A DNA stretch of 64,000 nt from the UHGV virus genome UHGV-1579991; one strand, 5' to 3'. Source of the stretch: a virus. Under the pieces are notes generated by a model. The model had not been told where the DNA came from, did not search any database, and saw nothing but the letters and a program-made list of their open reading frames with translations. A program made the translations under genes and the position numbers. This document shows positions 29,261 through 63,957 of the stretch, one piece after another (the stretch's first letter is position 1; the number at the start of each line of letters is the position of its first letter).

Positions 29261-29341
29261 GTGGACTCGCCGAGAATCGAACTCGGGTCTTACATAGCGC
29301 ATCCTTGACTTGGTCCTGTAAACAGGGTTGTCAACATGCAT
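29261..29341 (-). other. tRNA-like element: clean T-arm and 3' acceptor strand, no matching 5' acceptor strand found
   Basis: Minus-strand ccgag-TTCGATT-ctcgg then cgagtcc-a; upstream sequence does not supply GGACTCG-type partner. Confidence 0.25.
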
Positions 29342-29412
29342 TGCAATACGACAGGACTCGAACCTGCGACCTCGGATTGGACGTCCGCGCTCTTACCGCT
29401 GAGCTACGTATT
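29342..29412 (-). tRNA. tRNA, isotype ambiguous (anticodon region reads CGTCCAAT: UCC/Gly with G33, or CCA/Trp with poor stem)
   Basis: Acceptor GAATACG/CGTATTG (1:72 mismatch), D-arm GCTC-AGCGGTAA-GAGC, T-arm GCAGG-TTCGAGT-CCTGT. Confidence 0.55.
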
Positions 29413-29506
29413 CTTATCAATTGACTGCACTGCAATGCAATCAATCGTGCCAATGATATTTGACACGCATAATTGCAGTTATGCGTAACAATTCAAATGT
29501 CATTTG

Positions 29507-29579
29507 AGCCAACTGCAGGAATCGAACCTGTAACCTGCTGAGTACAAATCAGCTGCTCTACCAATTGAGCTAAGTTGGC
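29507..29579 (-). tRNA. tRNA-Thr (anticodon TGT)
   Basis: Acceptor GCCAACT/AGTTGGC, D-arm GCTC-AATTGGTA-GAGC, anticodon stem GCTGA/TCAGC, loop TTTGTAC, T-loop TTCGATT. Confidence 0.75.
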
Positions 29580-29661
29580 ATAAAGTCGTTGGGCCATTGC
29601 AACCCAAACCTATCATCTTTGCCTAACCAAAGATGCAAGCGCTCTCTTACACCACGACTTG

Positions 29662-29733
29662 TAGCCGAACTTGGAGTCGAACCAAGCTTTCGAGAATGAA
29701 AATCTCGCGTCCTAACCGATAGACGAAACGGCC
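29662..29733 (-). tRNA. tRNA-Glu-like (anticodon TTC), acceptor stem irregular
   Basis: Anticodon stem CGAGA/TCTCG, loop TTTTCAT, T-arm CTTGG-TTCGACT-CCAAG; acceptor GGCCGTT vs TTCGGCT has mismatches at 6:67 and 7:66. Confidence 0.5.
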
Positions 29734-29916
29734 AAGAGCAGTTCAAGTCTGCAGCATTGAACTGCGGAAACAATGCCTGTACGGGCAACCAATTGTGCAG
29801 ATACAGCGACATTGCAAAATCACACCGAACCAAGTTTGTGGCTCTTCTGTCTCATAAAAACAAGTAATCATTACACTTGGCACCAATGATTTTGATGTAA
29901 AAATCGGTGTGTTACG

Positions 29917-30001
29917 CGGAGAGTAAGGGATTCGAACCCCTGGTACGTTGCCGTACAGTGGTTTTCAAGACCACCGCCATCGACCGCTCGGCCAACTCTC
30001 C
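29917..30001 (-). tRNA. tRNA-Ser (anticodon TGA), long variable arm
   Basis: Acceptor GGAGAGT/ACTCTCC, anticodon stem GTGGT/ACCAC, loop CTTGAAA, variable arm GTACG-GCAA-CGTAC, T-loop TTCGAAT. Confidence 0.75.
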
Positions 30002-30194
30002 ATAAAACATTGCATAAGCATTCTTATCTCTTGATGAGGCCAAGTAGCTAATTTGGCAAGTTTGTTATATCTATCGTGACTGTTGCAGTTTGTTGTCACT
30101 CAATACACAAAACTTTCGAACATTCATTGACAACACTGCAATATCGCTTTTTAAGCTCAGCCATCAATGTATTTATGCAATGTATAACAATTCG

Positions 30195-30276
30195 TAGCCA
30201 AACCGGGACTTGAACCCAGACTCCTAATGGAACAACATTTTGAGTGTTGCGTGTCTACCAATTCCACCATTTGGCC
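30195..30276 (-). tRNA. tRNA-Leu (anticodon CAA), long variable arm
   Basis: Acceptor GGCCAAA/TTTGGCT, anticodon stem CAACA/TGTTG, loop CTCAAAA, T-loop TTCAAGT. Confidence 0.7.
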
Positions 30277-30373
30277 ATTTGCAAATGCAAGCTGTTTCAC
30301 AACTGTTTGCATTTGCATTTGCATTGTTTAACACACTAAAATATGATTCATCTAATCAAAAACCAGAGAATTG

Positions 30374-30446
30374 TCGAGAATGTGCGATTTGAACGCCAAT
30401 TATACGTCCCAAACGTATCGTGTTACCGGATTACACTACATTCTCG
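30374..30446 (-). tRNA. tRNA-Pro (anticodon TGG)
   Basis: Acceptor CGAGAAT/ATTCTCG, anticodon stem ATACG/CGTAT, loop TTTGGGA, T-loop TTCAAAT (T-stem imperfect). Confidence 0.65.
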
Positions 30447-30453
30447 TTAATTG

Positions 30454-30524
30454 TTGAACTGTCTGGACTCGAACCAGAAATATATCATCCAAAGTGATAT
30501 GTGTTACCATTACACCACAGCTCA
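30454..30524 (-). tRNA. tRNA-Gln (anticodon TTG)
   Basis: Acceptor TGAGCTG/CAGTTCA, D-stem GTGT/ACAC, anticodon stem TATCA/TGATA, loop CTTTGGA, T-arm TCTGG-TTCGAGT-CCAGA. Confidence 0.75.
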
Positions 30525-44900: not shown

Positions 44901-45936
44901 TTTTGCGTACAACTACATTATTGTTGTCATCATAGCAATACACATTAACATCATCGCCAATATCTGCAAGTTCACGTATTGTCATTGTTTGTCTGCCATC
45001 AGCAAGCATAACTTTAGTGCTGCCAACAATGCATGGATTTGTTGAGCGCTCTTCATACATTTTACCGTATGCTTTCGAGTTCGACTCTTCCATAATGCGG
45101 TCCCAAAAGAACACGCCGGGTTCTGCAGATGCCCATACATTGTCAACAATTTTGTCAAATAATGCTTTTGCATCTGATGTCTTATGCAGCTCTTGGCCAT
45201 CAGAGCCACGCCAAATATGTTCAAACTGCTGTTCTGCAAGCACTGCACGCATAAATGCATCAGTAAGCTTGATGGAAATGTTTGCACCTGTGATTTTTGT
45301 CAAGTCTTTTTTTGCGTCAATGAACTTATCTGCATCAGGATGCTCAATTGACAATGACAACATCAATGCGCCACGCCTGCCATTTTGTGCAACTTCTTTT
45401 GTCGATGTTGAAAAGCGTTCCATAAATGACACGACACCAGACGTCGTAATAGCACTGTTATGTACTTCTACGCCTTCTGGGCGAATATGCGACAAATCAT
45501 GGCCAACACCACCACGACGTTTCATCAACTGAACTTGCTCTTCATCTGTTTTGAAGATGCCGCCATATGAATCTGCATCATTGCCTATTACATAGCAATT
45601 TGACATTGATGTGTAACCGCCAAGACCGATACCAGCCATTGGAGAACCACCAAGTACAAATCGCTTAAATGGCTCAAGCAAATATGCAAGTCGCTCTTTT
45701 GACAATACACGTTTGCCTGTCTGTTCTTCAAATTGTGATTCTATACGGTCAAATTCATTGACCCAGCGCTCATGCATATCAGACAATGAGTGTTCATACA
45801 AATTGTCTTTGTCATGATGCAAGTATTTTGACATGCATATGTCAGCAGCCATTGAGTCGCCCGTAAATTCATGCGTCAGTGTAGTGTGCACTTCAGCATA
45901 TTCAGGCGACCCAATTTGAATGGGACGTTTTGTCAT
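41950..45936 (-). CDS. nrdJ: Ribonucleotide reductase, class II (adenosylcobalamin-dependent, NrdJ-like), interrupted in-frame by an intein
   Basis: Start at MTKRP (ATG 45936-45934); extein motifs STNP...CGEQPL (reconstitutes NPCGE), TIYRDGSR, C-terminal CPECGG...CTNCG zinc ribbon; total ORF 1328 aa is far longer than a typical RNR. Confidence 0.75.
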   Translation of the reverse strand: MTKRPIQIGSPEYAEVHTTLTHEFTGDSMAADICMSKYLHHDKDNLYEHSLSDMHERWVNEFDRIESQFEEQTGKRVLSKERLAYLLEPFKRFVLGGSPMAGIGLGGYTSMSNCYVIGNDADSYGGIFKTDEEQVQLMKRRGGVGHDLSHIRPEGVEVHNSAITTSGVVSFMERFSTSTKEVAQNGRRGALMLSLSIEHPDADKFIDAKKDLTKITGANISIKLTDAFMRAVLAEQQFEHIWRGSDGQELHKTSDAKALFDKIVDNVWASAEPGVFFWDRIMEESNSKAYGKMYEERSTNPCIVGSTKVMLADGRQTMTIRELADIGDDVNVYCYDDNNNVVVRKMRHPRKTGSNVQIYKVTLDSGDVIRCTGNHKFKLTDGTYKEARQLQHGDSLAIIARQQCSFDEVLSYQTNSKSAPYYAVLNNGVYKFEHRLIAEYCHAEQFDATHTVVHHIDGNSLNNDPNNLQVLSKKEHDALHALERRGTNNPIYKIKANAERFAQYSAKMSASTSGERNGRYDIDTTVQSIVDYVTQCTAKVGRGLSRKELEYYMRYAPGNNTVAWSGYRYNKLVETFGSIDAFLSHCATRANVKYPDLVGIDSRCIATAIKVRNMGYDTKFVDKQVYVKRICEHCGSEFWAHWFYREVAYCSAECGHAAQQAKWSKEQVLVYTAAKQKLGKRPNYEEFANECKSNNVDAAIHASYRKFKQFADYYNHRVHTVELDGVEDVYNGTVDDYHNFFVGSFDAVNDTNDRHMQVFVNNRQCGEQPLAAYASCILSHRNLTAYVLNPWTADASFDFEAFYKDTYDCAVIMDDLVQLEIEAVQRIIAKVESDKESFDIKKTELDLWHKVYDKLTNTRRYGMGFLALGDAMAMLGLRYGSQESIDFAVTMQQWLVKATYEASIDLAEIRGSFAIFDYDTDVQSKFIQRMLSELIDDEHITTYQQFGRRNINTTTIAPTGTTALMTQTTSGIEPVFMPLHKRRRKPTAVDNEADINFIDETTGDKFIEYAVVHYPLMQWICKRVQLGDDKFTLVKDTGIEWSEAEMSRIKAWLSNASQAVIDELLVQSPYYKATTEDVDWIGKVKLQGALQKYIDSSISVTVNIPNSATKELVREIYLTAWKSGCKGCTIYRDGSRAGVLVKDDKQSKDKSHVLQSGHRSKRKPVLPAAVYCVSVYKRKWCILVGCDDGRPYEIFAFELDKDEFDKLQGIEQTTITKTDKKHYKLGDNLSFLQHYDNISERLGSDEQQTITRLYSTMLRNGIDLGEIVDQTAKSFASVGTFCKAIGRALKLHIQDGSKMYAKCPECGGDMVKFDGCVRCTNCGHSACN
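43645..45033 (-). mobile_element. Intein (about 463 aa) with Hint blocks and an HNH endonuclease domain, apparently ending in Gln
   Basis: Begins at Cys after STNP (CIVGSTKVMLADGRQTMTIRELADIGDD, block A); block B GNHKFKLTDG; HNH motif VVHHIDGNSLNNDPNNLQVLSKKEHDALH; zinc-finger-like CEHCGSEF...CSAECGH; block F VYNGTVDDYHNFFVG; ends ...VFVNNRQ immediately before CGEQ. Confidence 0.65.
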
Positions 45937-45973
45937 TGTAACAGTGCATTTAAGTGTTTTAACAGTTTTATGT

Positions 45974-46007
45974 ATAAATTGTACAACAATGGGCAAAATT
46001 TTGCATC
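45974..46007 (-). promoter_or_regulatory. Promoter-like conserved motif containing TTGTACAA upstream of RNR
   Basis: Minus-strand GATGCAAAATTTTGCCCATTGTTGTACAATTTATAC. Confidence 0.5.
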
Positions 46008-48591: not shown

Positions 48592-49137
48592 TTAGCCTGC
48601 AAACTCATTGATTTTTAGGTCATTTGTCGTAACTGCAAAGCAATCAATGTGCAGCCATGTGACGTCTTTTTCTATACGACAACGATGCGGCAATTCATCT
48701 GCATGTTCTTTAATGAGCTTTCGCATTTCTGCAGCAGTCATATCTGCAGACTGACAATCAATTGCTGCACCATTACAATGAGCACTCAAATAAAGCTTGT
48801 TTGCAAGTGTCTTGTCTTTTGGGATTTGACAGATATTGCATCGTAAGCCCCGTTGACTCATTGTGCCACCTTTAGCCCAATTATTGACACACAACGGAAC
48901 TTTCAGCACAAACTTGCGTAATGCAAGCAGCAAGTCAAGCAGTTCTCTGTCAAGAAACTGCCAAGAATTATCGCCAAACTTGTCATAGCAATGTTTGCAT
49001 ACAAGTTCTTTTATGCTGAAGTACTGCTTAAGCTCTGCAATAACAGAGTCTCTTGAAGCACTTGCAATATCTGCAATGTTAGTTATGCTGTTGTTGCTGT
49101 TCATGTTGTCTGTCAAGTTCTTTGCATTTGCACTCAT
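48592..49137 (-). CDS. Putative endolysin, peptidase M15 / LAS-type zinc peptidase-like
   Basis: Motifs LSAHCNGAAIDC and WLHIDC; ATG at 49137-49135 (ORF-track start at 49197 is TTG). Confidence 0.5.
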   Translation of the reverse strand: MSANAKNLTDNMNSNNSITNIADIASASRDSVIAELKQYFSIKELVCKHCYDKFGDNSWQFLDRELLDLLLALRKFVLKVPLCVNNWAKGGTMSQRGLRCNICQIPKDKTLANKLYLSAHCNGAAIDCQSADMTAAEMRKLIKEHADELPHRCRIEKDVTWLHIDCFAVTTNDLKINEFAG

Positions 49138-49387
49138 TTCGTTCACCCATGACTTTTGTAATGCCTGCAGTTGCAAACATGCCTGCGACTGCACCAATTA
49201 TGCCTGCAACTGCGCCAAGCTGTTCAGTTGTTTTACCAGTTGCTACGACTTCCCATATGATAGCAAAACAAACAACGAGCAATATAAAGATGCCTATAAA
49301 AGTCACAGCTACAACAAAAAATGATTTGACTGACACACCTGTGTCATTCGTCACTAAGTTGCGCATTGTAAATTTGTTGTTATTCAT
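49079..49387 (-). CDS. Holin-like small membrane protein
   Basis: Two hydrophobic helices (FFVVAVTFIGIFILLVVCFAIIW; AVAGIIGAVAGMFATAGI), charged C-terminus, immediately upstream of the peptidase gene. Confidence 0.45.
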   Translation of the reverse strand: MNNNKFTMRNLVTNDTGVSVKSFFVVAVTFIGIFILLVVCFAIIWEVVATGKTTEQLGAVAGIIGAVAGMFATAGITKVMGERNECKCKELDRQHEQQQQHN

Positions 49388-49547: not shown

Positions 49548-51203
49548 TTATGCAAGCAATGTTTGCAGCATGTAGCAGCCTTTTGCATATGCGACAATTG
49601 CTTTTGCAGGGTTGTTCTTGATGTATGCAGGCAACTTGAGCCAAATCAATGCCACAAGCACTTTCTGTCGCAGCGTCAAATCAAGTTCATCAATGTTGTA
49701 GCCAATGACTTTTGCTCTGACGTCGCCATCAACATAATCGAATTGCTGATATGCTGACTGATTGAATACATCATAGCCAGACAAACCATATGCAAACTTT
49801 GCAATGTCATAATCGATGTCACCTGTCATCTTAACGTCACCAAAGTAGCCTCTGGGGTCAATGAACATGCATTTTGATGAATCTGCACTGAACATTGTAT
49901 TTGACGTATTCGGGTCACCATGAATGAATGACCAATTTTCGCATGCATAGTCAATTGAATCTTCTTGTGACAAGAAGAATCTTAACTTGCTCATCAGTTC
50001 ATCGAATGGCATCAATGCAATACCATTGAATGATTCGATGCCTGCTACAAGTGACTTGACTTCAGCATATCTTGCAATAGTAGTCTCAATGTACTCTTTG
50101 CGCATTGCGTCAATCATTTGCTGTCTGCTAACTGGCCAAATCTCGTCATTGTCAAGATTGCTTGCATGCAATTCATTGATTGACTGCTTGAATGTCGTCA
50201 TGCAGCCACGTGCAATTGTAGCATATCTACGCTCAATATCAACTTTGTTGAGGAACTGATGTACAGTCACTCCGTTAATTTTCGACATTTTGATGAAGTC
50301 TTCACCAGTTTCAAATATCGATGGAATGACTGTCGATTCTGCATTCATAGCATGACGATACCATTCTTGTTCTTTCTGAATGAGTGCCAAACCACGAGCA
50401 TTTGTAGCAGATTTCGTAACAATATCGCCATCAATGCTAATGCTATTGAAATACCGTACTTCATTATCACGTGCAGCCTTGACTGCTTCACTGACAAATG
50501 CTCCGCGTTCGCCATATGAATGACAGCCAGCAATTTCATATCTGTCTACAAATGTAACGTTGGTCATTAAATCAGCAAAATCAGCATTGTTATCATTATG
50601 CTGCATATCAATGACATTGTTATGAAACGCTGCAGGTACATAATATGCGCCAACAATGCCACTATGATATGTAGACTCATACAAATGGTCGAGCACATAT
50701 GCTTCTGCATCTGCATAAGACCCTACTTTGTAGAATGCATCAGTAGGAATGAGATGCAGTCTGCAATCAATGTCATTTGACGTGCAGCAAGTTATGCAGC
50801 CAGTTTTGAATTTGTCAAGTGGCAATTTAATGTCACCAAGCCATACGTCAGACCAGTGATAGAATACATTGCAGCCACCAATGTTGTTAGCAACATACAG
50901 TGCTACATCTGCGCATGCTTTTGCTGAGCCATCAGCTTTGTCATGCACAATAGTTGACAATTTGATATCTGGTGCAAATGCTGCAGCATGTTCATGAATC
51001 ATTGCTGCATGAGTGTCATTTGCACATGCAACAATGACTTCATCAAACTGTCGAGCATAGGATGTCAAAATTTTTGCGAGCACGGTTTGTTTGCCCGCAT
51101 TTACAAGAGTTTTAGGGATGTAATTGTTGCCAGTCATTGTTGACATGCGAGTGCCCAAACCACATGCAATGATTGCTAACACATTTGGATATTGATGAGA
51201 CAT
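49548..51203 (-). CDS. Bifunctional sugar-phosphate nucleotidyltransferase (N-terminal) and APH/choline-kinase-family kinase (C-terminal)
   Basis: Start at MSHQYPNV (ATG 51203-51201); NTP-transferase signature LAIIACGLGTRM...IPKTL; kinase motifs FIHGDPNTSNTMF and FIDPRGYFGD. Confidence 0.6.
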   Translation of the reverse strand: MSHQYPNVLAIIACGLGTRMSTMTGNNYIPKTLVNAGKQTVLAKILTSYARQFDEVIVACANDTHAAMIHEHAAAFAPDIKLSTIVHDKADGSAKACADVALYVANNIGGCNVFYHWSDVWLGDIKLPLDKFKTGCITCCTSNDIDCRLHLIPTDAFYKVGSYADAEAYVLDHLYESTYHSGIVGAYYVPAAFHNNVIDMQHNDNNADFADLMTNVTFVDRYEIAGCHSYGERGAFVSEAVKAARDNEVRYFNSISIDGDIVTKSATNARGLALIQKEQEWYRHAMNAESTVIPSIFETGEDFIKMSKINGVTVHQFLNKVDIERRYATIARGCMTTFKQSINELHASNLDNDEIWPVSRQQMIDAMRKEYIETTIARYAEVKSLVAGIESFNGIALMPFDELMSKLRFFLSQEDSIDYACENWSFIHGDPNTSNTMFSADSSKCMFIDPRGYFGDVKMTGDIDYDIAKFAYGLSGYDVFNQSAYQQFDYVDGDVRAKVIGYNIDELDLTLRQKVLVALIWLKLPAYIKNNPAKAIVAYAKGCYMLQTLLA

Positions 51204-51224
51204 TGTGTAGTGTTGTTTATATGA

Positions 51225-51258
51225 GAATATTGTACAATATGCATTGCTATTTTGCAAG
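51225..51258 (-). promoter_or_regulatory. Promoter-like conserved motif containing TTGTACAA
   Basis: Minus-strand CTTGCAAAATAGCAATGCATATTGTACAATATTC. Confidence 0.5.
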
Positions 51259-51504
51259 ATGACAATGCTTACGCCATACTGCAATTTCAACATCTGTAGC
51301 AAAATCAAAGTGCAAGCCATGCAATTGTTTCATGCCATATTGACGTCTTGCAATATACTTATTGCCAACTCGCTCAACAACGGAACCAATTTCTACTACA
51401 TTTTTAGAATGTCGTGGCTCATGTAATGGCACTCTGAATATGTATCTGCCATCTAATGTTGACATTATGTCACCATTATCAATTATGCCTGTTTGCCTGC
51501 TCAT
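51247..51504 (-). CDS. Hypothetical protein, 85 aa
   Basis: ORF. Confidence 0.35.
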   Translation of the reverse strand: MSRQTGIIDNGDIMSTLDGRYIFRVPLHEPRHSKNVVEIGSVVERVGNKYIARRQYGMKQLHGLHFDFATDVEIAVWRKHCHLAK

Positions 51505-54075: not shown

Positions 54076-55062
54076 TTATACTACAGCAGACAATTGTTGC
54101 AATGTTGACTGCATAACGTCATCAGTTACAAATAATTCGTTTTCAGTGAACACATAAAATTTTAAGCCATGTTGTTTTGCATATTGCACTGCTGCAGTAG
54201 ATTTTTTACGTACTGCATCACAAAATGCATATGCACATGGCTTAATTTCTATTAGCAATCCATATGTAGGCAAATAGAAATCTACAATGTATTTATGATG
54301 CCCATTGTATGGCACTGCAACAGTTTCATATTCATATTGAATGCCAAGACGTTCTAATGTCAATACAAAATGAGTTTCATAACTACTGCGTGTATGCAAT
54401 TGCGTTGGCATTGCAATAGAATGACATTTTACACACTGCTGAACAAGTACTAATGCGCGTTTGCCCTTACCACAGTTTTGCATTTTGCCATTTTGCATTG
54501 CTCGTGCAACACCTGCAGCAACGTGCATAGCAAATGATGGGTCTTCTTTATATTTTCGTCGTAACCCTGCAGATACACGAGACTTAAAGTCTGGGTCTTC
54601 TGCATAGCGTCTGTTCAAACCAGCAGTTACTCGTTGGCTAAATGTCGGGTCATTCACTACAGCAACCATTGCTTTTCGCGTGCCAATTGACACATTTTTA
54701 CATCGAGTTTCATCTCGCCATACTTTAGACATAGATGCTGTCCAGCGTTTAACATATTCAGGGTCATCAAACGCATGTTTTGCGCGACAGCATTTACAAA
54801 CATTATTAAAGTAGCCATATCTAATGCCTATGTATGCTATAGCAGCCCCACAATATTTGCAATGTTTTGCTGCGTCATCATACAATAGATATTTGTCATA
54901 GTAGTCTTGTTCATGCATATTAACAGATTGTAATGCTCTGCGTATTGTGCATGATGTACACCATTTGTTAAGCTCTGGTACATAATACTCATAACGTTGC
55001 TGCCCCTTTGGTGTTATTCGTGCAAGTCTTTTATATTCCGGATGATATGTAGGATTTTTCAT
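54076..55062 (-). CDS. Free-standing homing-endonuclease-like protein (family B): Cys-rich N-terminus, NUMOD3-like repeats, C-terminal PD-(D/E)xK core
   Basis: Repeats PTFSQRVTAGLNRRY / PDFKSRVSAGLRRKY / PSFAMHVAAGVARAM; nuclease core YIVDFYLPTYGLLIEIKP. Confidence 0.5.
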   Translation of the reverse strand: MKNPTYHPEYKRLARITPKGQQRYEYYVPELNKWCTSCTIRRALQSVNMHEQDYYDKYLLYDDAAKHCKYCGAAIAYIGIRYGYFNNVCKCCRAKHAFDDPEYVKRWTASMSKVWRDETRCKNVSIGTRKAMVAVVNDPTFSQRVTAGLNRRYAEDPDFKSRVSAGLRRKYKEDPSFAMHVAAGVARAMQNGKMQNCGKGKRALVLVQQCVKCHSIAMPTQLHTRSSYETHFVLTLERLGIQYEYETVAVPYNGHHKYIVDFYLPTYGLLIEIKPCAYAFCDAVRKKSTAAVQYAKQHGLKFYVFTENELFVTDDVMQSTLQQLSAVV

Positions 55063-55156: not shown

Positions 55157-55879
55157 TTAGTTATCATGCACAGCAGCTATATAACGGCCTTGCGAATCCA
55201 AATGAATCGCAGTTTGCATTGTAATTTCTGGCTGCGCTTTGTTGTGTTGTTGCTCTGCATCATATTCACGTCGCAACCCACCATTCGGATGACATAGGTA
55301 AAACCTATCAAAATCTGTACCCAACTGTTCAGCGACAGACAGCATAATATTGTCGCCTACAAGCTGAGATGCTAGCAGAGAATTTGTTGGGATTCGTGGA
55401 TTGCGTGAGTCCTCGTCAATTGCTGGCAATGATACAAGCAAGTCTGCCCAAGCATTCATATCAGTGACCTTGCCACCGGCAAAGTTGATGCCAATGATTT
55501 GACAATTCGGTGCAAGCAATTCACGATGTTCACGAAGATATGTCATTGCAGTTGCAAGTTCAGATGTGTTGCCAGTTTTGCTGAATGCTACAATAACATC
55601 GTTGTTTCGAATCATGCCAAAGTCACCATGCATTGCATGCACTGCATCAAAGAATGATGCGTTCAATGACAAGCAATAACATGTTGCAGCAAGTTTTTCA
55701 CAGCAATGCACATTTTTGCCGATGCCAGTGAACAACACTTTGCCATCAGACTTCAATGCATTTGCAATGATATCTGCTGCAATGCCAAGAACATCATATT
55801 GCGCATCTGAAATGTTGTTGTGCCATGCTACAAGCGATTCAACTGATGCAGCAATGCCTTTGTGTACAAGTGTTTTCAT
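55157..55879 (-). CDS. SIS-domain sugar-phosphate isomerase, arabinose-5-phosphate isomerase (KdsD/KpsF)-like
   Basis: VLFTGIGKN, FFDAVHAMHGDFGMIRNNDVIVAFSKTGNTSEL, PTNSLLASQLVGDNI, FYLCHPNGGL follow the KdsD-type SIS pattern. Confidence 0.6.
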   Translation of the reverse strand: MKTLVHKGIAASVESLVAWHNNISDAQYDVLGIAADIIANALKSDGKVLFTGIGKNVHCCEKLAATCYCLSLNASFFDAVHAMHGDFGMIRNNDVIVAFSKTGNTSELATAMTYLREHRELLAPNCQIIGINFAGGKVTDMNAWADLLVSLPAIDEDSRNPRIPTNSLLASQLVGDNIMLSVAEQLGTDFDRFYLCHPNGGLRREYDAEQQHNKAQPEITMQTAIHLDSQGRYIAAVHDN

Positions 55880-55897: not shown

Positions 55898-56578
55898 TCA
55901 AAAAAACTTAAGTTTTGATAGCATTTCAGTGTCTTGTTCTGTGTTGATGCCAAGCTCTTGCATGACATCAAGCAATGCAGACCATAATTGCTCATATGAT
56001 TTGCCGCTGTTCATAACAACAGCGTCAACAAACAACTCGTCGATATATTGTTCACTTGAATGATTGATGCTTTGCTTGACATCGTCATTGATAATTTTAA
56101 TGAGTTTGAAGCCTCTTGAACGCAATGCGGTCGCTTCATTTGGATATCGACAATCGCCAACACAAATAAGAGCTTCATTATGACAATTGTCAAGTCGATA
56201 CAGCAAACTGTTTACAAAGAAGTCTTCACCATACAGTTTCTTGAGCGCATCTGAAACATCAAGATGCACATTGCGAATCGATGAACCTGCAAACTCTACA
56301 AAGTGTTTCTGTTTGAATGCATTGTTATGCAAGTCTTGCAAATTGTAGCCCAGTGTACTTGCAATAAATGCTTTCAGTGGCTTTGCAAAGCACTCATATG
56401 CAAGATTGCAGCCACATGACCAGTATGGATTCGCTTCAATTTGCTGTAAAGTTGATGTGTAAATGCCATCAACTACAGTGAACTTGCATTTAGTCATGAC
56501 TCGAATCATCGCCCAAGCCAAATCTTTGCCTACGCCTGCATGACCAACAAGCGCAATTTTTGTTATGTCATCATTCAT
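55898..56578 (-). CDS. P-loop kinase, dNMP kinase-like (T4 gp1-like)
   Basis: Walker A KIALVGHAGVGKD and overall arrangement resembling T4 deoxynucleotide monophosphate kinase. Confidence 0.5.
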   Translation of the reverse strand: MNDDITKIALVGHAGVGKDLAWAMIRVMTKCKFTVVDGIYTSTLQQIEANPYWSCGCNLAYECFAKPLKAFIASTLGYNLQDLHNNAFKQKHFVEFAGSSIRNVHLDVSDALKKLYGEDFFVNSLLYRLDNCHNEALICVGDCRYPNEATALRSRGFKLIKIINDDVKQSINHSSEQYIDELFVDAVVMNSGKSYEQLWSALLDVMQELGINTEQDTEMLSKLKFF

Positions 56579-56960
56579 TGCACCACTGTTTAAGAGTCAC
56601 AAAATTGTTGAAGTCTGCATAAAAGTCATCGCCACCGTTAAGCATTGCGACATTCTCAAGTTCATTGAGAATGATTTGCTTATCAATGACTATTGCAAGA
56701 GCGTCAAAGTCTTCTTTTGATTGCAAGTCAAGTAGCACAGGATGACCTTTGAGTCTTGTAGTTAATGTTGCTGGCAGTCTATGCACAGACTTCTTTTTCT
56801 TTGACTGCGTAGGATGTTTTGAGCGCTTTCTTGTAGCAGTCAGCTGAATATCATAATCAATTTCAAGCAAACCTGCATCTTGCATTACAAAATTGAGATT
56901 AACATGCACAGGATGCTTTTGCTGAATGTCTATGAATTCTTGTAATTTGTCGTTTATCAT
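56571..56960 (-). CDS. Hypothetical protein (start at MINDKLQEF)
   Basis: ATG 56960-56958 just downstream of promoter motif. Confidence 0.4.
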   Translation of the reverse strand: MINDKLQEFIDIQQKHPVHVNLNFVMQDAGLLEIDYDIQLTATRKRSKHPTQSKKKKSVHRLPATLTTRLKGHPVLLDLQSKEDFDALAIVIDKQIILNELENVAMLNGGDDFYADFNNFVTLKQWCNE

Positions 56961-56973
56961 TTGAAATGCATTT

Positions 56974-57014
56974 GTATATGATAATTGTACCACGCATGCA
57001 TCAACTTTGCACAC
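56974..57014 (-). promoter_or_regulatory. Promoter-like conserved motif
   Basis: Minus-strand GTGTGCAAAGTTGATGCATGCGTGGTACAATTATCATAT. Confidence 0.55.
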
Positions 57015-57018
57015 AAAA

Positions 57019-57046
57019 CAAGACCAGCTCAATTGAGCTGGTCTTG
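57019..57046 (-). terminator. Rho-independent terminator
   Basis: caagaccagctc-AATT-gagctggtcttg followed on minus strand by TTTTGTGTG. Confidence 0.6.
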
Positions 57047-57064
57047 CGGTCATATGTAGACTTC

Positions 57065-57637
57065 TTAAAATTTGGATAGACTCGTAGTATCAAGCGATGC
57101 AATTGAATCAATGCGCAAAGAATCTGCTATAGGTGCGCAATCATCAATTGGGTGACTTGCAGGCTTAACTTTGAGCATATACATTCTGCAATTGCCAATA
57201 TCTATAAGGGAACCAGAACGTGTCATATAATCACAGCCCAAAATGCCAACGACTTCATGACCAAGTGCTTTGCTAAGCTGAACTAAAATAGGTGAAATAT
57301 CATCAATAAACATATCCAACTGTACAGAGCCATTTGCGATAGTAATATCTGCGTCTATTGCATGAGATACTTGAAGAGCCCCTGTAACATATGATAATCG
57401 CTTAACTGAACGCTCTTTGCCAACCATGTCATGAGTAGCAACAAATGTGCTATCAATCAATGACAATGACGCGCCAGTATCAAGCAAAAGCCATGCATCG
57501 ACACCATTGACATTTGCATGCACAAATGGCAGGCTCTTCAAAACAATTGGTGACTGTGATTGCTGCAATGCTTCATTGCACATTGTCAGCGTCATAATCG
57601 CAAGTAGCGATATGAGAAACAATTTGAATGCTTTCAT
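57065..57637 (-). CDS. Retropepsin-like aspartic protease with N-terminal signal peptide
   Basis: MKAFKLFLISLLAIMTLTMC hydrophobic leader; active-site LLLDTGAS; downstream VVGILGCDYM. Confidence 0.55.
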   Translation of the reverse strand: MKAFKLFLISLLAIMTLTMCNEALQQSQSPIVLKSLPFVHANVNGVDAWLLLDTGASLSLIDSTFVATHDMVGKERSVKRLSYVTGALQVSHAIDADITIANGSVQLDMFIDDISPILVQLSKALGHEVVGILGCDYMTRSGSLIDIGNCRMYMLKVKPASHPIDDCAPIADSLRIDSIASLDTTSLSKF

Positions 57638-57651
57638 AAGGCTACTCTGCT

Positions 57652-59601
57652 TTAGTCATTTGCTTTAGTTGCTTGCATCAGTTCAGCAAAGCTTACAGTG
57701 TAAGCGTCTTCGCCAACGGTCACGTATGCAGCATTGACATTTGAGTCATTGCCTGTGTATGTAACCAAGGTGCCTGCAGGAATTTCCACACCGTCAATGG
57801 TTCGCATCGAATTGACAAGCTTGTATGTCTTGTTATCTTCGAAGTTCTCATTGACATATGCAGCAGCAATCATTGTTGAACGCTTACGAGATTCATTGAT
57901 GAAACTTGCGCCAACAAGTTCTGACAACTTCTTCTTTGTTACAGCAGAGCATTTGTCATATGCAATGTCAATTGCGAGGTCTACATCACCAAGTTCCTTT
58001 GCAATGAGTTCATCAATCTGAGACAGCTTCTTGTCATCTTTGACAGCGACAAAATTCATTGCAAACTTGCGAGCGTTGTCTGACAATGATTCATCAATGT
58101 TCCACTGTTTCATCAATGTCTGCTTCAGTACCTTGTCAAGTTCCGACCAGTCCTTATCTGCAAGAGTAGTTGCATCAAAGTCTTCATTGCTGAACTGCTT
58201 CAGCACTTTGACTTTGTCATCATGTGACAATGCAGCCCACTTGTTTGCAGCCTCTTCAGCAGATTCAAGCAAAGGCTTGATTGCATCTTTGAGTTCTTGC
58301 GGCCAAGTTTCAGGCGCTTTGAGCAGCATCTCAGATGAGTTGTACTCAAGCATGTCAGTCATGATTGCAAGCTTAACATTGTTAGCTTTCTCCTCGGGTG
58401 ACAGAGCTTTGAACTTTTCAGCCCAGTCTTCAGATTCAGTTACAATTGACACTGGTTTTGCAAAACCAGCAACAAAGACAAGCTTATACATGATATTCGT
58501 CATGAATGAGCAAACTGCATCAATGTCTGACTGTGTTGCTGCAGATTGAGCATCACGAATGTTGAGCAATGCCTGACGAAGAGACATAATGCCTACAACA
58601 GGGTCAGACCATGTCAACACAACAGAGCTGTCAATTGTGATACCCTTGTCGAATCGCATATTTTCTGCAATACGGTCAGCAAGTTCAGGCAGTTCAGTGT
58701 AGTACTGCTCAAGTGCTGCATGTGTAGCAGGAATCGAAACTTTTGCAGCATCAAATGGGTTGTTGATGTGCATAACATGTGCAGTTTGAATTGACTGCAT
58801 CAGCATCGACACTACTGCAGATTCTATTGCAACATCATCTGCAGCAGCTTCATCAAGATTTGCAAGTTTTAGCAATGTCTTTTTGTCTGCATCTGACAAT
58901 CGCAGCCAAATGTATTCCCATTGACTGTTTGCATCATAGCCACGGTCAGTAGCAAACTTGGTGAGTTCTGCAGATTTCTTTGCTGCGTCATCGTCATCAA
59001 GCCAATCCAAGAATGCTTTCAGTTTGTCGTCAAATGCTTCATTAACAAATGACGCCATTGCATTTTGCAGCAAATATTGATGGTCTCGTACTGGCGACTC
59101 AACAATTTCAAAGCCTTCAAGAGACTTTGGCGAGTCAGTTGCTGAACCAGCTTCAAGACACTTCTTTGATGCATTGTCAATGACAAACCACATCTTTTGT
59201 GCTTTGAGTGCAATGTAAGTCTTGTCTTTTGATTGCTGAACAGTCATGTTGTCAAGAGCCAATGCACTGATTGGCAAATTCTTGACTGCTGACTTGTCAA
59301 GTGCTTCATTGACTGCTACATTGTCATCACTCATTAACTGAGTATTTGCAGCAAATGTTGCAGAATCAATGTTAAGCTCTTTGCCATCAGGCATAGAGAA
59401 CTTAACTGCATCTGCAACATCAAGCACTTGTACCATGGTACCTGCTTCGACTTTGTCATCACCAACAGCGAACTCAGTTACAACCTGATATGCCTTGTTA
59501 GCTTCAACAGTTTCAACAGACTCCATAATGAACTTTGCTGTACTGCAAGAGATTTTGTGCTTTTTCATGTTCATGTATGAATTTGAGTGTTTGTTGTTCA
59601 T
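57652..59601 (-). CDS. Hypothetical acidic helical protein, about 649 aa (start uncertain); possible scaffold or virion protein
   Basis: Long ORF located between capsid-gene region and the protease gene. Confidence 0.45.
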   Translation of the reverse strand: MNNKHSNSYMNMKKHKISCSTAKFIMESVETVEANKAYQVVTEFAVGDDKVEAGTMVQVLDVADAVKFSMPDGKELNIDSATFAANTQLMSDDNVAVNEALDKSAVKNLPISALALDNMTVQQSKDKTYIALKAQKMWFVIDNASKKCLEAGSATDSPKSLEGFEIVESPVRDHQYLLQNAMASFVNEAFDDKLKAFLDWLDDDDAAKKSAELTKFATDRGYDANSQWEYIWLRLSDADKKTLLKLANLDEAAADDVAIESAVVSMLMQSIQTAHVMHINNPFDAAKVSIPATHAALEQYYTELPELADRIAENMRFDKGITIDSSVVLTWSDPVVGIMSLRQALLNIRDAQSAATQSDIDAVCSFMTNIMYKLVFVAGFAKPVSIVTESEDWAEKFKALSPEEKANNVKLAIMTDMLEYNSSEMLLKAPETWPQELKDAIKPLLESAEEAANKWAALSHDDKVKVLKQFSNEDFDATTLADKDWSELDKVLKQTLMKQWNIDESLSDNARKFAMNFVAVKDDKKLSQIDELIAKELGDVDLAIDIAYDKCSAVTKKKLSELVGASFINESRKRSTMIAAAYVNENFEDNKTYKLVNSMRTIDGVEIPAGTLVTYTGNDSNVNAAYVTVGEDAYTVSFAELMQATKAND

Positions 59602-59650
59602 ATGATATGATATATATCAAGTGCAGCAATTGAACAGATTGCAAAAACAA

Positions 59651-59674
59651 TGCTCAGACTTTACAGTCTGAGCA
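59651..59674 (-). terminator. Rho-independent terminator
   Basis: tgctcagact-TTAC-agtctgagca followed on minus strand by TTGTTTTTG. Confidence 0.6.
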
Positions 59675-59851
59675 TTGAACGACTAAATTGTACATCTTCC
59701 ACAATGATATAGAATCATTGTTAATATTGTATTGATATTGTACAACATGCATTGCATATTTGCAATGATACAACATGCAAAATGCACTTGCACTTTGATG
59801 CAAAGTACTGCGTACACAACATGCATTGCATATTTGCATTTTGACGCAATG

Positions 59852-60874
59852 TCATTGTTGTTTATGCCAGCCATATGATGCCTGACCAGCATCATACACT
59901 TCTACAAAACCATGGTCGTACATAAAATCTTCATTACGAGTGCCCTTGCCACCATTAGTGCCAAGAATACGGTCTGCACCATGCATAAGTAGCATGTTAT
60001 TTGTGACATGTTGCTTTGTCAGCATATTGAACCAGTGTTTGCTATATGACAAACCAAGACCATCAAAGCCCAGCTTTGTGTACACACCACCGTCAAACTT
60101 GCTTAAATCACAATATGATAACACAGATTCAGGGTCATATGTCTTGATAAAGTGCTTAAAGATTCGTTCAGCACCACCAACAACTTTGGTTGCTGCACAA
60201 AGACGTAGCAATTCATATTGATAGCGCTTATTGTATCGTGGACGACCAAATGTCATAAGTTGATGAATGACATAACCACCAAGCAACTCAAGTGGATGAC
60301 CTTCAATCAACGCAAGATTGATAAAATTGCCTGAGCACTTGCCTTGCAAATGATGTTCAATCAAAAATTGATTTGCAGTATACTTGTCAATTTCAACAAC
60401 TTTAAGCTTGCGAGCATATACAATCTTTGATTTGTCTACGATTTGATGCTTGATGTGATTGATAACTTTCTTGGCGTCATCCCAATCCCACACATGAATA
60501 CAATGAAAGCCTGCAGCTTTTGCAATGTCTGTTTTCTTTGCATGAACATCACAAGGCAAATGTGCATCTTTTGCATCATGCATAAACAAGTGCTCAAATG
60601 AATGCGTACTGTTATGCGAAAATGCAGGATTGATGTTAATGACAATATTGTCATGTCGAAAATCGAAGACTTCATCACCAATGACAAAGTTGCGCTCAAA
60701 ATCTATACCGACATGTTTGAGCAACACTTGATGCCACACGTCTTTATAGGCTGATTCAAGCTTGCTTAGCTCATCACAGTTTGCAATGTTTTTGTAACGT
60801 TGAATAGCAGCATCAAAGTCAAGATTGACTTCAGCGTAGTCTGCATTTTTATCATAGTGAAATTTTGAGCTCAT
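59852..60874 (-). CDS. Homing-endonuclease-like protein with N-terminal PD-(D/E)xK-like domain related to the C-terminal domain of family A
   Basis: Start at MSSKFHYDK (ATG 60874-60872); IVININPAFSHNSTH...GFHCIHVWDWDD. Confidence 0.45.
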   Translation of the reverse strand: MSSKFHYDKNADYAEVNLDFDAAIQRYKNIANCDELSKLESAYKDVWHQVLLKHVGIDFERNFVIGDEVFDFRHDNIVININPAFSHNSTHSFEHLFMHDAKDAHLPCDVHAKKTDIAKAAGFHCIHVWDWDDAKKVINHIKHQIVDKSKIVYARKLKVVEIDKYTANQFLIEHHLQGKCSGNFINLALIEGHPLELLGGYVIHQLMTFGRPRYNKRYQYELLRLCAATKVVGGAERIFKHFIKTYDPESVLSYCDLSKFDGGVYTKLGFDGLGLSYSKHWFNMLTKQHVTNNMLLMHGADRILGTNGGKGTRNEDFMYDHGFVEVYDAGQASYGWHKQQ

Positions 60875-60890
60875 GCGTATAATTTTGTGT

Positions 60891-60935
60891 ATATAATTAT
60901 TGTACAACATGCAAATGCACATTGCATTTGATACA
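60891..60935 (-). promoter_or_regulatory. Promoter/operator element shared by homing-endonuclease genes
   Basis: Minus-strand GCAATGTGCATTTGCATGTTGTACAATAATTATATAC; near-identical element at 62041-62085. Confidence 0.5.
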
Positions 60936-60965: not shown

Positions 60966-62027
60966 TTATTTTGTATTGCTACGCGTCATTGTTAAATGAC
61001 CGCAATCATACACATCAACTTCTGTTTTGCCAAGCATACATGTATGACAATTTATTTTGAAATCTGCTGCAGTGTAATCAGGATAGTTTAGCGGAGATTC
61101 TTTTGACAAATCAATTTCAATTGTGTCAGTAGTTTTAAGTTGTTCAGTGCCTGCAATGATATCTGCAATAAGATTGATAACTTCTTCTTGTGAATCCCAA
61201 TCAAACACAGTTATGCAACGATAGCCTGCATCAAGTGCAAGTTTTGTTTTGTTGTAATGGTATTGAGCACCAATAACATTGTTGTCTTTTGCTCGACCAG
61301 TTAAATATGCAAAACTAACAGTGCAGTTGTGCGTAACTGTTGGACAAATTTCTATAAGTAACTTTGCAGGCTCATACTGCAAATCATATGTTTGATTATT
61401 GATGTTAAACTCGTACTGTGTATCAATTGCCAACTGTCGTAATAACGCATCATGCCACATCATATTACATTTAGAAATTGTTTTGGATGACAATCTGCAT
61501 TGCGGCAATTGACATGGCCAATCTACGCCGTACATTTGTTGTGTTGTTTGACGCATTTTGTTAACATCACCAAAATGATTGCCATATCGATGCTCTTTGG
61601 TTTTAAGCGACTGCTCAATATTGACATTGCCTACACAACCATAACGTTCAAGTTTTGTTGCAGCAGTTTTGCTAACATCACCATGCCCATTGCCAAATTT
61701 GGCGACTTTAGTTGCAAGTATTTTATGACTTGGGCCAAATGCATTGCCATACAATTCTTGTTTAGTCGCAAGCATTTTGTCGATATTACAACCAGCGCCA
61801 TAAGTGTTATGCATAGTTTGCATACGTTGTCGAATAAATTTTGGCACAGATAAAGGACTTTCTACACCATATTTGCGTAAGCAACTGATTTTGCATGCGT
61901 ACTTTTGCTTGATGACAGAATGTGCATTTCGACGTCCTATGTAAGTGTTTTCTGATGTAGCAGCAAGCTCTGCATCTCTAAGAACTTCAAGTGCAGCAAT
62001 TCGTGCTTCAATTTCTTCAGATGTCAT
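60966..62027 (-). CDS. Free-standing homing-endonuclease-like protein (family A paralog)
   Basis: N-term EEIEARIAALEVLRD, YG repeats (ELYGNAFG, ERYGCVGN, HRYGNHFGD), C-term LLIEICPTVTHN...GYRCITVFDWD. Confidence 0.5.
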   Translation of the reverse strand: MTSEEIEARIAALEVLRDAELAATSENTYIGRRNAHSVIKQKYACKISCLRKYGVESPLSVPKFIRQRMQTMHNTYGAGCNIDKMLATKQELYGNAFGPSHKILATKVAKFGNGHGDVSKTAATKLERYGCVGNVNIEQSLKTKEHRYGNHFGDVNKMRQTTQQMYGVDWPCQLPQCRLSSKTISKCNMMWHDALLRQLAIDTQYEFNINNQTYDLQYEPAKLLIEICPTVTHNCTVSFAYLTGRAKDNNVIGAQYHYNKTKLALDAGYRCITVFDWDSQEEVINLIADIIAGTEQLKTTDTIEIDLSKESPLNYPDYTAADFKINCHTCMLGKTEVDVYDCGHLTMTRSNTK

Positions 62028-62040
62028 TTTTTATCATATT

Positions 62041-62085
62041 GATAATTGTACAACATGCAAATGGCGTTTGCATTTGATGCAACAA
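62041..62085 (-). promoter_or_regulatory. Promoter/operator element shared by homing-endonuclease genes
   Basis: Minus-strand GCAAACGCCATTTGCATGTTGTACAATTATCAATATG. Confidence 0.5.
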
Positions 62086-62113
62086 TGACTTAGCTTGTAC
62101 AGTTTGCAAAAAA

Positions 62114-62144
62114 GAACCGCTTGCAATCTAATTGCAAGCGGTTC
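62114..62144 (-). terminator. Rho-independent terminator downstream of capsid gene
   Basis: 14-bp stem gaaccgcttgcaat/attgcaagcggttc followed on minus strand by TTTTTT. Confidence 0.7.
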
Positions 62145-62373: not shown

Positions 62374-63957
62374 TCAAATCCAGCCGTAGTCGCTGTGGAT
62401 AGCGAAGGTGAGGTAAGCCAACTCGGGATACATACCCGTCTCCGCGAGAGCGTAATCCGACTCAATCAGCAACTTAGGCGCTGCTGTACCTTCGGCTGTT
62501 AATTCCACACTTGATGCAAGGTCATATGGCATGAATACGCATCCCTGGTTGACATTCTCTACGTCAACGCCGTCAGCAGTTTTGTTCGTACGAAGAACGA
62601 GAACAGTGTTATCGTTCAGCGGCTGCTTAGGATTGCAATAGATTTTAATGCCAGCAAGGTCACCTGCATAATACAGGTTCTTGTTGTCCTGTACCAGCGT
62701 ATTGTCAAGAGCTGCAACAAAGTTCTTCTGAGCCTTAATTGCAACCAAGGCAATCGTATTGACCACGGCAGCATCACCGGCACCGAAACGCGACAGGTTG
62801 CCAATGATTGCCGAAGCAGCCAGGATACGAGTTGCGATACGAGCCTGACGGGTAATCTGGTTCTCAGCCGAGCTGTTCGATTCAGCGTTCGGAACCATAC
62901 CGAATTCAGCCGTACGGTCTACACCCATCTTGTCGACAAATGCAGGAGCCTGGAATTCTGAGAATGCCTTGGCGGTTGAACCAGCGTAGCCAATGTACAA
63001 GTTCAGGTTGTAGCCCTGAGCAGCCAACAGCTGAGCATGTGTCGTAACACCAAGTGCACGCATGCGCTTCAGACCATTGTCGTTAATTGACTGCGTGATT
63101 TCATTCTGCATTGCATTCTTGATGATTGCAACTGCATCCAAACCGCGAGCACGGAGGTCCTTAACCTGTCGACGAGTCAGAGCACCCCAAGTCTGGTACG
63201 TCTTAACTTCGATAGCCTTTGAGAAGGTGCGGAGCTCCAGCATGTTCGGGTTGCCAGCCTCAGCCTCAGAACGAGACATTGGGTTGCCGTCAATGTCATC
63301 CATTGCAGCGAAGCCGTGGATGTGTTCGTCACCAGCCGAAACCAGGTCGAACATAACCTCAGTCATGCCAGTCAGCATGTCAGTTACAGCACCTGCAGCG
63401 TCAACCGAGTAGATTTTCGATGCAGCCATTGCAACATCAGCCAACGACTTGTCAGGAGCAACTGTCATTGCGCCACCTGCGCCTACAGTGTACACGCCCT
63501 CATTGCGAACTACGAGGTAGCCTGCAACACGCGATACCTGTACAAACGTTACCTTGGCAGCAAGCTCACCGGCAGCTGAACCGCCGATGTACAGAACTTG
63601 ACCCTTCTTGAGGCCATGAACCATTGTCTGCGAAGCAACATTGTACAACTCCTTCCACTTGATGAGGAAGTAACGAGGACCCTTGGCTGCATTCAACTTG
63701 CCACCGCCATATACGTAGTCTACATAGTCCAGCTGAACCAGCGGGCTGTAAACAGGAATGGTCGGGAGCAGGTCGAACAGAATCGTGTTGGCTGCGATGT
63801 TCATGTTCAGAGCCAGAACATTGGCAGCTACATCTATTGAACCACGCTTACGCGACGGGTCATGGAACTGTGCTTGCGTACCTGGGTCAGCAGGGAAAGC
63901 GACCGGACCTACGCCATTGAGATTCTGCGAATACGTCGACTCAAACGACTCGTTCAT
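62374..63957 (-). CDS. Major capsid protein (T4 gp23-like)
   Basis: 527 aa; central region NMLELRTFSKAIEVKTYQTWGALTRRQVKDLRARGLDAVAIIKNAMQNEITQSINDNGLKRM parallels the gp23 segment around IDKQVIEAKSRQLKAAYSIELAQDLRAVHGMDADAELSGILATEIMLEINREVVDWI; markedly G/C-ending codon usage unlike the rest of the window. Confidence 0.65.
   Translation of the reverse strand: MNESFESTYSQNLNGVGPVAFPADPGTQAQFHDPSRKRGSIDVAANVLALNMNIAANTILFDLLPTIPVYSPLVQLDYVDYVYGGGKLNAAKGPRYFLIKWKELYNVASQTMVHGLKKGQVLYIGGSAAGELAAKVTFVQVSRVAGYLVVRNEGVYTVGAGGAMTVAPDKSLADVAMAASKIYSVDAAGAVTDMLTGMTEVMFDLVSAGDEHIHGFAAMDDIDGNPMSRSEAEAGNPNMLELRTFSKAIEVKTYQTWGALTRRQVKDLRARGLDAVAIIKNAMQNEITQSINDNGLKRMRALGVTTHAQLLAAQGYNLNLYIGYAGSTAKAFSEFQAPAFVDKMGVDRTAEFGMVPNAESNSSAENQITRQARIATRILAASAIIGNLSRFGAGDAAVVNTIALVAIKAQKNFVAALDNTLVQDNKNLYYAGDLAGIKIYCNPKQPLNDNTVLVLRTNKTADGVDVENVNQGCVFMPYDLASSVELTAEGTAAPKLLIESDYALAETGMYPELAYLTFAIHSDYGWI

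Follow-up and report, generated by a model that had tools for sequence, protein, structure and literature searches.

A retropepsin-like gene with a lipoprotein-type leader in a jumbo phage: a candidate accessory protease of the host envelope

We analysed a stretch of 64,000 nucleotides (nt) of the virus genome UHGV-1579991, here called the window, with attention to the minus-strand open reading frame (ORF) at 57065..57637, which encodes a retropepsin-like protein referred to below as the protease. The original prediction described a hydrophobic leader, the signature LLLDTGAS and a downstream GILGCDYM segment. All three are present in the translated ORF, which runs from MKAFKLFLISLLAIMTLTMC to LLLDTGAS and then to GILGCDYM. 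The features of the locus are collected in Table 1.

The protease ORF is a real gene, far beyond a chance ORF. The family PF13650 (Asp_protease_2) matched it at 29.0 bits (curated cutoff 24.3; E = 1.8e-6; profile positions 1–89 of 90), and RVP and RVP_2 scored slightly under their Pfam cutoffs. All Pfam matches were confined to aspartyl-protease families, and a PHROG scan gave none. Four close homologues, with 64–99% identity, were found in metagenomes. The ratio of nonsynonymous to synonymous substitution rates (dN/dS) was calculated from Nei-Gojobori counts. Compared with the 99% identical copy in contig L001, the gene has 31 synonymous and 2 nonsynonymous differences, giving a dN/dS of 0.016; against a 73% identical copy the value is 0.115. 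Residues M1, K2, F4, K5 and L8 are unchanged in all close homologues, which indicates that translation begins at the first ATG (M1) and that the leader is part of the protein.

To model the protein, 99 family members were gathered by iterated searches. A first AlphaFold model from 5 sequences had a predicted local distance difference test score (pLDDT) of 38.8 and was replaced by the model from the 99-sequence alignment, with a mean pLDDT of 82.8 and values above 90 across residues 30–160. This model has the retropepsin fold, a double-psi beta-barrel with a flap hairpin. Its elements are an N-terminal strand (28–33), the active-site loop W49-LLLDTGAS-57, a helix (115–125) and C-terminal strands (143–154). 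The terminal strands 28–33 and 151–154, a potential dimer platform, are present in the monomer model. The flap block, amino acids (aa) 81–90, has the lowest pLDDT in the domain (74), and Gly86 at its tip is at least 90% conserved in alignment A2. When the model was searched with Foldseek, the proteases of equine infectious anaemia virus (EIAV) and human immunodeficiency virus type 1 (HIV-1) were matched at template modelling scores of 0.78–0.81 and root-mean-square deviations of 2.3–2.8 Å. Scores in the fold comparison table were 12.1 for the Ddi1 RVP domain, 11.5 for EIAV protease, 10.4 for feline immunodeficiency virus protease, 10.3 for xenotropic murine leukaemia virus-related virus protease, 10.2 for Rickettsia APRc and 10.0 for HIV-1 protease. 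A sequence search of the PDB with the protease gave chance matches only.

Both catalytic signatures are conserved. The motif of two hydrophobic residues followed by D-T/S-G-A is present as L51-L52-D53-T54-G55-A56. In the 99-sequence alignment the catalytic D, T and G columns are filled in 91, 89 and 91 sequences respectively. The second signature is looser across the wide family, with G in 60/99, I in 62/99, L in 77/99, G in 57/99 (A in 30/99) and D in 39/99. Within the phage subfamily, represented by an alignment of 8 sequences with 27–76% identity (A5), G131, L133, G134, C135 and D136 are fixed throughout. Only 15 columns are invariant in A5, and they include Cys20, D53, T54 and G55 as well as these five. 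Such strict conservation of the catalytic signatures at 27% identity is the pattern that would be expected of an active enzyme. Cys135, inside G-I-L-G-C-D, is itself invariant in the phage subfamily; at the matching position HIV-1 protease has Arg87. A redox or structural role for Cys135 is possible. The C-terminal tail, in which D172-S173-L174 is invariant within the close clade, is missing from the homologues P0005, P0007, P0099, P0100 and P0102.

The N-terminus has the features of a lipoprotein leader. Hydropathy reaches 2.45 over aa 6–20, the sole strongly hydrophobic segment in the protein, and the leader is modelled as a helix (aa 2–26). A basic MKAFK is followed by 14 hydrophobic residues, which fits the n-region and h-region criterion for lipoproteins (7–22 residues). 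Cys20 aligns with canonical lipoboxes in orthologues, namely IIAC in P0005, AIAC in P0007 and V-V-A-C in P0102, and a PROSITE-type lipobox expression was passed by P0004, P0005, P0007 and P0102. The x-M-C form of the protease recurs in its two nearest new relatives, P0099 (F-C-M-C) and P0100 (F-V-M-C). The remoter viral homologues L021, L022 and L023 have leaders with LYSC, SVSC and LISC respectively. Across the wide family, the Cys20 column holds Cys in 52 of the 99 sequences (A3), many of them two-domain bacterial lipoproteins. Judged from these leaders, export of the protease is very likely, and lipidation at Cys20 is likely. The original prediction called the protein "secreted". The leader agrees with the export part of that term; the implied free secretion is better replaced by "lipoprotein-like", because Cys20 is invariant down to 27% identity and the orthologues have canonical lipoboxes.

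Surface display of Bacteroidota lipoproteins depends on a lipoprotein export signal (LES): between +2 and +6 from the Cys, a polar or basic residue comes first and two acidic residues follow it. Single-acid versions functioned poorly (PMC5080379). After Cys20 the protease reads N-E-A-L-Q, with one acidic residue, and so falls short of the LES rule. The protein is therefore likelier to face the periplasm than to be surface-exposed. The L021 homologue, with C-K-E-D, satisfies the rule.

The protease gene belongs to a two-gene unit. Three strong minus-strand terminators, with stems of 13–14 bp followed by T-runs, divide the region. The 81-nt stretch with the terminator behind the protease gene has a minimum free energy of -32.3 kcal/mol (z = -5.3), and none of 200 shuffles folds as well. 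Upstream of the protease, with a gap of 14 nt, lies the gene for a 649-aa acidic protein with a DUF5856 match (32.4 bits) and a phrog_858 match. The short gap and the flanking strong terminators indicate that the DUF5856 and protease genes are co-transcribed as a unit. The 649-aa protein has its DUF5856/phrog_858 region in the centre and similar small domains at either end, and W-x-x-L-S-x-x-[DE]-K helices recur in it; no counterpart was found in 50,697 deposited phages or in the PDB. The original prediction placed the protease next to capsid-region genes. This holds loosely, since only two homing-endonuclease-like paralogues intervene between the capsid gene and the unit. However, the major capsid gene (62374..63957) is ~5 kb from the protease gene and in a different transcription unit.

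Table 1. Features of the protease locus in the window
Feature	Position	Strand	Details
Protease gene	57065..57637	-	Encodes a 190-aa retropepsin-like putative lipoprotein precursor; stop codon 57065-57067; from the ORF list and translation
Predicted signal peptide	57581..57637	-	aa 1-19: n-region MKAFK, then h-region LFLISLLAIMTLTM
Cys20	57578..57580	-	Putative lipid-modified +1 cysteine of lipobox-like L-T-M-C; invariant in alignments A1 and A5
Retropepsin-fold domain	57170..57556	-	aa 28-156
Catalytic motif D53-T54-G55-A56	57470..57481	-	In WLLLDTGAS; reads GATACTGGCGCG
Predicted flap beta-hairpin	57338..57418	-	aa 74-100, Gly86 at tip; strands 74-83 and 86-100 in model
Second retropepsin signature G131-I-L-G-C-D136	57230..57247	-	Strand 129-133, then helix 135-141 in model
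Disordered C-terminal tail, clade-specific	57068..57169	-	aa 157-190; pLDDT <50 from residue 163
Intrinsic terminator	57018..57047	-	18 nt past protease stop codon; 13-bp stem with 7 GC pairs, then TTTGTGTG
649-aa acidic DUF5856 protein gene	57652..59601	-	No leader; true start perhaps Met12 at 59568
Terminator after homing endonuclease gene	59648..59677	-	5' boundary of the two-gene unit; 13-bp stem, then TTTTTG
Terminator after capsid gene	62114-62144	-	

Head maturation is assigned to a separate protein. The sister contig at 99% identity carries a 1399-aa ORF that lies beside the portal gene (phrog_213) and precedes the capsid gene by a few kb. The N-terminus of this product matches the head-maturation protease family phrog_207 with E = 4e-32; its Peptidase_S77 match of 22.5 bits (E = 8.6e-5) is under the cutoff of 27. 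In phage MA9V-2 the gene immediately before the capsid gene is annotated "prohead core protein serine protease". At the equivalent position, the related contig L010 encodes a product of 1467 aa for which a weak S77 match had been precomputed. No tblastn match to the MA9V-2 prohead protease was found within the window. The part of the large L010 protein inside that locus gave no Pfam S77 match, the domain lying outside the locus, and the small ORFs that precede the L004 capsid gene gave no match to the protein. In the Pfam and PHROG scans the protease showed no homology to S77, S78/U35, S80 or ClpP-type prohead proteases. It is neither the sole candidate nor placed among portal, scaffold and capsid genes, since it lies downstream of the capsid terminator. 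Like the T4 gp21-type S77 prohead protease, the retropepsin is encoded by a phage whose capsid is of the T4 gp23 type. The S77 protein, however, has an unrelated fold and catalytic type, is cytoplasmic, lies next to the portal gene and co-occurs with the retropepsin in the sister genome. With a serine prohead protease in that genome, the retropepsin is an additional enzyme and not the head-maturation protease, as the original prediction had argued.

The gene order of capsid, one or two inserted genes, DUF5856 protein and protease is kept in three lineages. Compared with the window, L008 has a capsid protein of 70% identity, a collinear DUF5856 protein of 38% and a protease of 31%. We considered unusually fast evolution of the protease from these values and rejected it, because all shared proteins apart from the capsid protein are 30–50% identical. 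In L010 the order is a Gp23-type capsid gene, a 591-aa gene, a 735-aa DUF5856 protein (40 bits, above cutoff), the protease P0099 and a deoxynucleoside monophosphate kinase. P0099, the L010 orthologue, matches PF13650 with 38.1 bits and has an equivalent terminator hairpin directly 3' of its gene. In L006 and L008 a strong hairpin lies one small gene further downstream of the protease.

Related proteins were also found much further afield. A HMMER search of 1.84 billion representatives gave 433 clusters at E ≤ 1e-3 and 14 at E ≤ 1e-10, and many of these clusters are 140–190-aa proteins whose alignment runs from the leader to the end of the domain. A hydrophobic leader is present in 51 of the 55 small relatives examined, and 14 of the 55 carry a strict lipobox. 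Some distant members have leaders of the signal peptidase I (SPI) type, ending in AQ or SQ and without Cys. The subfamily with G-I-L-G-C-D is phage-restricted and nearly absent from cellular genomes: the genomes of 185,579 species gave only two weak matches in metagenome-assembled genomes, and IMG/VR gave seven loci, including contigs of 143 kb and 676 kb.

The distant homologues occur in various gene neighbourhoods. On a crAss-like contig (L024, 6001-6501) one directly follows the muzzle protein gene, and the stop and start codons of the two overlap. Another (L026, 6001-6480) is at the edge of a Bacteroidota prophage, on the strand opposite to a lysozyme-holin cassette and adjoining PorP/SprF host genes; this position is moron-like. 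Others are found among helicase and ribonucleotide reductase (RNR) genes, on a phage-like 71 kb contig and, at one cellular locus, adjoining a response regulator.

The window capsid protein shares 35–39% identity with its counterparts in Chryseobacterium phages MA9V-1 and MA9V-2, Sphingomonas phage PAU and Tenacibaculum phages pT24 and PTm1. Remoter kin of the capsid protein are in Flavobacterium phage MaF61, Prevotella Lak phages and metagenomic megaphages. A Shine-Dalgarno-like motif was found upstream of 1 of the 48 likely window genes, which is the background rate. Judged from the capsid kinship and the scarcity of Shine-Dalgarno motifs, the host is probably a member of the Bacteroidota. 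Two IMG/VR contigs of ~175 kb, close kin of the window phage, bear the protease at 96–99% identity; the source phage is a jumbo phage.

We consider it somewhat better than even, with a probability of roughly 0.55, that the protease is an accessory, exported, probably lipid-anchored and dimeric retropepsin of the host envelope and not a prohead protease. The reading draws on the gene, its fold and catalytic motifs, the leader with the invariant Cys, the operon, the prohead protease of the sister genome and the phage-restricted distribution. According to this reading, the protease would be transcribed with the upstream 649-aa DUF5856 gene, as a unit beyond the terminator of the capsid gene. It would be exported across the host inner membrane, where the signal peptide would be removed and Cys20 most probably lipid-modified. 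The protein would then be tethered to the membrane on the periplasmic side, probably in a Bacteroidota envelope. As in other retropepsins it would form a homodimer, with each subunit giving one D-T-G aspartate beneath paired flaps. By analogy with APRc and RloA, its closest functional analogues, the protease would most likely serve, in the infected cell, to cleave one envelope protein or a small number of them. Possible outcomes include removal of a receptor or of another surface or periplasmic protein, which could provide exclusion or protect progeny from debris, loosening of the envelope before lysis, and removal of an envelope sensor.

Several points weigh against this assignment. L-T-M-C has Met at position -1 and fails both [LVI][ASTVI][GAS]C and PROSITE PS51257, so that cleavage by signal peptidase II is not assured. 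The DUF5856 neighbour lacks a leader and cannot be a periplasmic partner of the protease. No result indicates the substrate. The relative PAU infects Sphingomonas, and the Bacteroidota host is one that we infer.

A soluble periplasmic or secreted protease, whose leader is cut by SPI (for example after T-M-C20 or near it), is rather unlikely. In its favour, the Met at -1 breaks the canonical lipobox. SPI favours small residues at -3 and -1, and the T at -3 and C at -1 suit this rule. Several distant members, with their AQ or SQ leaders, could be processed in the same way, and the RloA retropepsins of Pseudomonas aeruginosa are soluble periplasmic proteins (PMC11957051). However, SPI cleavage needs no Cys, whereas the invariance of Cys20 over 27–76% identity matches that of the catalytic residues. 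The canonical lipoboxes at the aligned position in orthologues, and the x-M-C form of P0099 and P0100, also argue for the lipid-anchored form.

A role in lysis, in which the lipoprotein protease would do the job of a spanin by cutting the tethers between outer membrane and peptidoglycan, has a low probability. It would be a lipoprotein, as o-spanins are, and the PHROG scan recognised no spanin near the window endolysin (48592..49197). In L008 a lysozyme lies ~2 kb downstream of the protease, and the prophage homologue in L026 abuts the lysozyme-holin cassette. In the window, however, the endolysin is ~8 kb off and in another unit, and the prophage homologue is moron-like and on the strand opposite to the lysis genes. 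Other homologues are amid helicase/RNR genes or crAss muzzle genes. The protein also lacks spanin features: it is not proline-rich, it is not small (170-aa folded enzyme domain) and it has no i-spanin partner.

Slightly less probable again is a non-catalytic binder on a retropepsin fold, acting as a receptor blocker, decoy or inhibitor. APRc is described as moonlighting as an immunoglobulin-binding protein (PMC8649778), and exclusion lipoproteins such as T5 Llp act through binding (PMC9586334). The full catalytic signature (D-T-G-A and G-x-L-G-x-D), strictly conserved at 27% identity, argues for an enzyme instead.

A virion or prohead component that would lose its hydrophobic N-terminus as a targeting or propeptide segment and would process head proteins such as the DUF5856 protein could draw on the position downstream of the capsid gene with only homing-endonuclease-like genes between, on the pairing with a large acidic protein in three lineages and on the disordered tail as a possible propeptide, but we regard it as very improbable, because a serine prohead protease is already present in the sister genome, the basic n-region, 14-residue h-region and conserved Cys form an export signal, the DUF5856 partner lacks a leader, distant homologues lie in non-structural contexts, and PAU, pT24, PTm1 and MA9V, which share the capsid module, gave no match to the protease.

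Proteins of this kind are already known: phage retropepsin-like proteins are named in databases and in one preprint, and the window protease is a divergent new member. The best Foldseek matches in BFVD were phage proteins of the same size (140–182 aa; E = 1e-10 to 1e-7), aligned over 165–181 columns, the greater part of the 190-residue query. They include A0A8S5S0H9 (Myoviridae sp.), A0A8S5QUR9 (crAss-like virus, "Retropepsin-like protein") and A0A7M1RY13 (uncultured phage cr111_1, "Aspartyl protease"). The family phrog_21241 ("protease") matches 4 of the 55 small relatives. Like the window protease, the named proteins, including phrog_21241 and the "acid protease" of Mar_Mega_1, are phage-borne, and they come largely from Bacteroidota-associated phages; they lie in other gene neighbourhoods and are too divergent for detection by sequence. 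When the 50,697 deposited phages were searched by tblastn and at the DNA level, no match was found for the region, the protease itself, P0007 or the 649-aa partner. In the literature we found no functional study of any phage retropepsin, and searches on crAss-like aspartyl proteases, jumbo-phage aspartic proteases and PDC-M08 gave nothing useful.

Compared with known cellular enzymes, the protease shows both similarities and differences. It shares DTGA, ILGxD and a domain of ~120 aa with the bacterial PF13650 proteases, many of which have leaders or lipoboxes. The cellular matches to that family are mostly tandem two-domain lipoproteins of ~300 aa (61/99), whereas the window protease is a single-domain member of a phage subfamily with a clade-specific tail. 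APRc (RC1339) of Rickettsia conorii is an outer membrane protein, is dimeric and cuts autotransporters in vitro (PMC4140852). It is 13–15% identical to the protease, is embedded in the membrane and not anchored through a lipobox, and is the product of a bacterial housekeeping or virulence gene. The RloA/RimB-type Pseudomonas enzymes (PDB 9g59; Legionella 2pma) belong to another Pfam family, are soluble and cellular, and are encoded in an operon with RloB and RloC; their conserved disulfide is not kept in the window protease. Pseudomonas RloA, classed by Pfam as a zinc protease, is periplasmic and affects envelope stress tolerance and cell shape (PMC11957051).

T5 Llp, Cor and the Rz1 o-spanin share with the window protease a phage origin and a lipoprotein-type leader to the host envelope. 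These three are small non-enzymatic binders or membrane-fusion subunits, and comparison with the protease revealed neither sequence nor fold similarity. The protease also weakly matches PADLOC PDC-M08B (23 bits, E = 1.5e-5, nearly the full profile length), a component of ~127 aa of a candidate anti-phage defence system. We read the match as a shared retropepsin-like domain only and not as a sign of a defence role. The original prediction suggested that the protein may act on host envelope or defence proteins; this match is the sole link to defence, and the results speak neither for nor against such targets.

To our knowledge, almost all of the phage proteases that have been studied work in the cytoplasm, in head maturation or in the processing of polyproteins. 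A phage that sends an aspartic protease into the envelope of its host would be using a tool of another kind. Members of the family occur in ecologically important Bacteroidota phages, including crAss-like phages, marine and gut jumbo phages and megaphages. If receptors or envelope proteins are cleaved, this would provide an enzymatic mechanism for superinfection exclusion or lysis in a phylum where little is known of spanins and exclusion systems. A more speculative proposal, which we think doubtful, is that retropepsins of this small, exported or lipid-anchored type make up a phage-specific family that is widespread among Bacteroidota phages (jumbo phages, megaphages, crAss-like phages and prophages) and that remodels the host envelope enzymatically, for instance by clipping the receptor used by the phage itself or an envelope-located defence or sensor protein. 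If true, this would be proteolytic superinfection exclusion or counter-defence, which has not been described so far. The protease offers a defined target, with one small gene, one catalytic Asp and one lipobox Cys.

The ORF that follows the protease gene (56571-57053, minus strand) has an apparent start at 57053, which falls within the terminator. The motif GTACAATTATCA, a candidate phage promoter element, has three exact minus-strand copies upstream of gene starts (28213-28224, 56979-56990 and 62040-62051; 0.69 expected, one mismatch allowed), and the copy at 56979 sits between the terminator and Met32 of this ORF. From the start inside the terminator and the placement of the motif, the downstream gene is probably one of 129 aa from Met32, as called in L002. 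Two of the three strong terminators have, directly past the T-run, an exact copy of TTGCAA(A/T)CTGT(A/T)CAA (59630-59644 and 62095-62109, minus strand), which showed no enrichment with mismatches allowed. The motif TTGCAAWCTGTWCAA was not enriched when mismatches were permitted, and sigma-70 promoter scans were at background level.

Further observations concern other minus-strand genes of the window. The tandem homing-endonuclease-like paralogues (59852-60922 and 60966-62027) both match a single 383-aa gene of L008. L001 and L002, though collinear with the window in other respects, lack its third endonuclease gene (54076-55062). These differences among contigs indicate presence/absence polymorphism of mobile elements. 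A SIS-domain sugar-phosphate isomerase (phrog "arabinose 5-phosphate isomerase") is encoded at 55157-55879. The 590-aa protein at 49548-51320 has a 551-aa counterpart in L001/L002 with a weak NTP_transferase match. These two nearby genes hint weakly at an envelope-modification theme. In the 1348-aa ORF for the RNR large subunit (41950-45996), HNH-endonuclease PHROG matches at about aa 445-744 lie between RNR segments, which suggests an intein or endonuclease insertion. ARAGORN reported a "permuted tmRNA" at 28909-29351, just ahead of a tRNA cluster, which may be spurious. The cluster, at 28909-30524, comprises seven tRNA genes (Gly, Thr, Glu, Ser, Leu, Pro and Gln).
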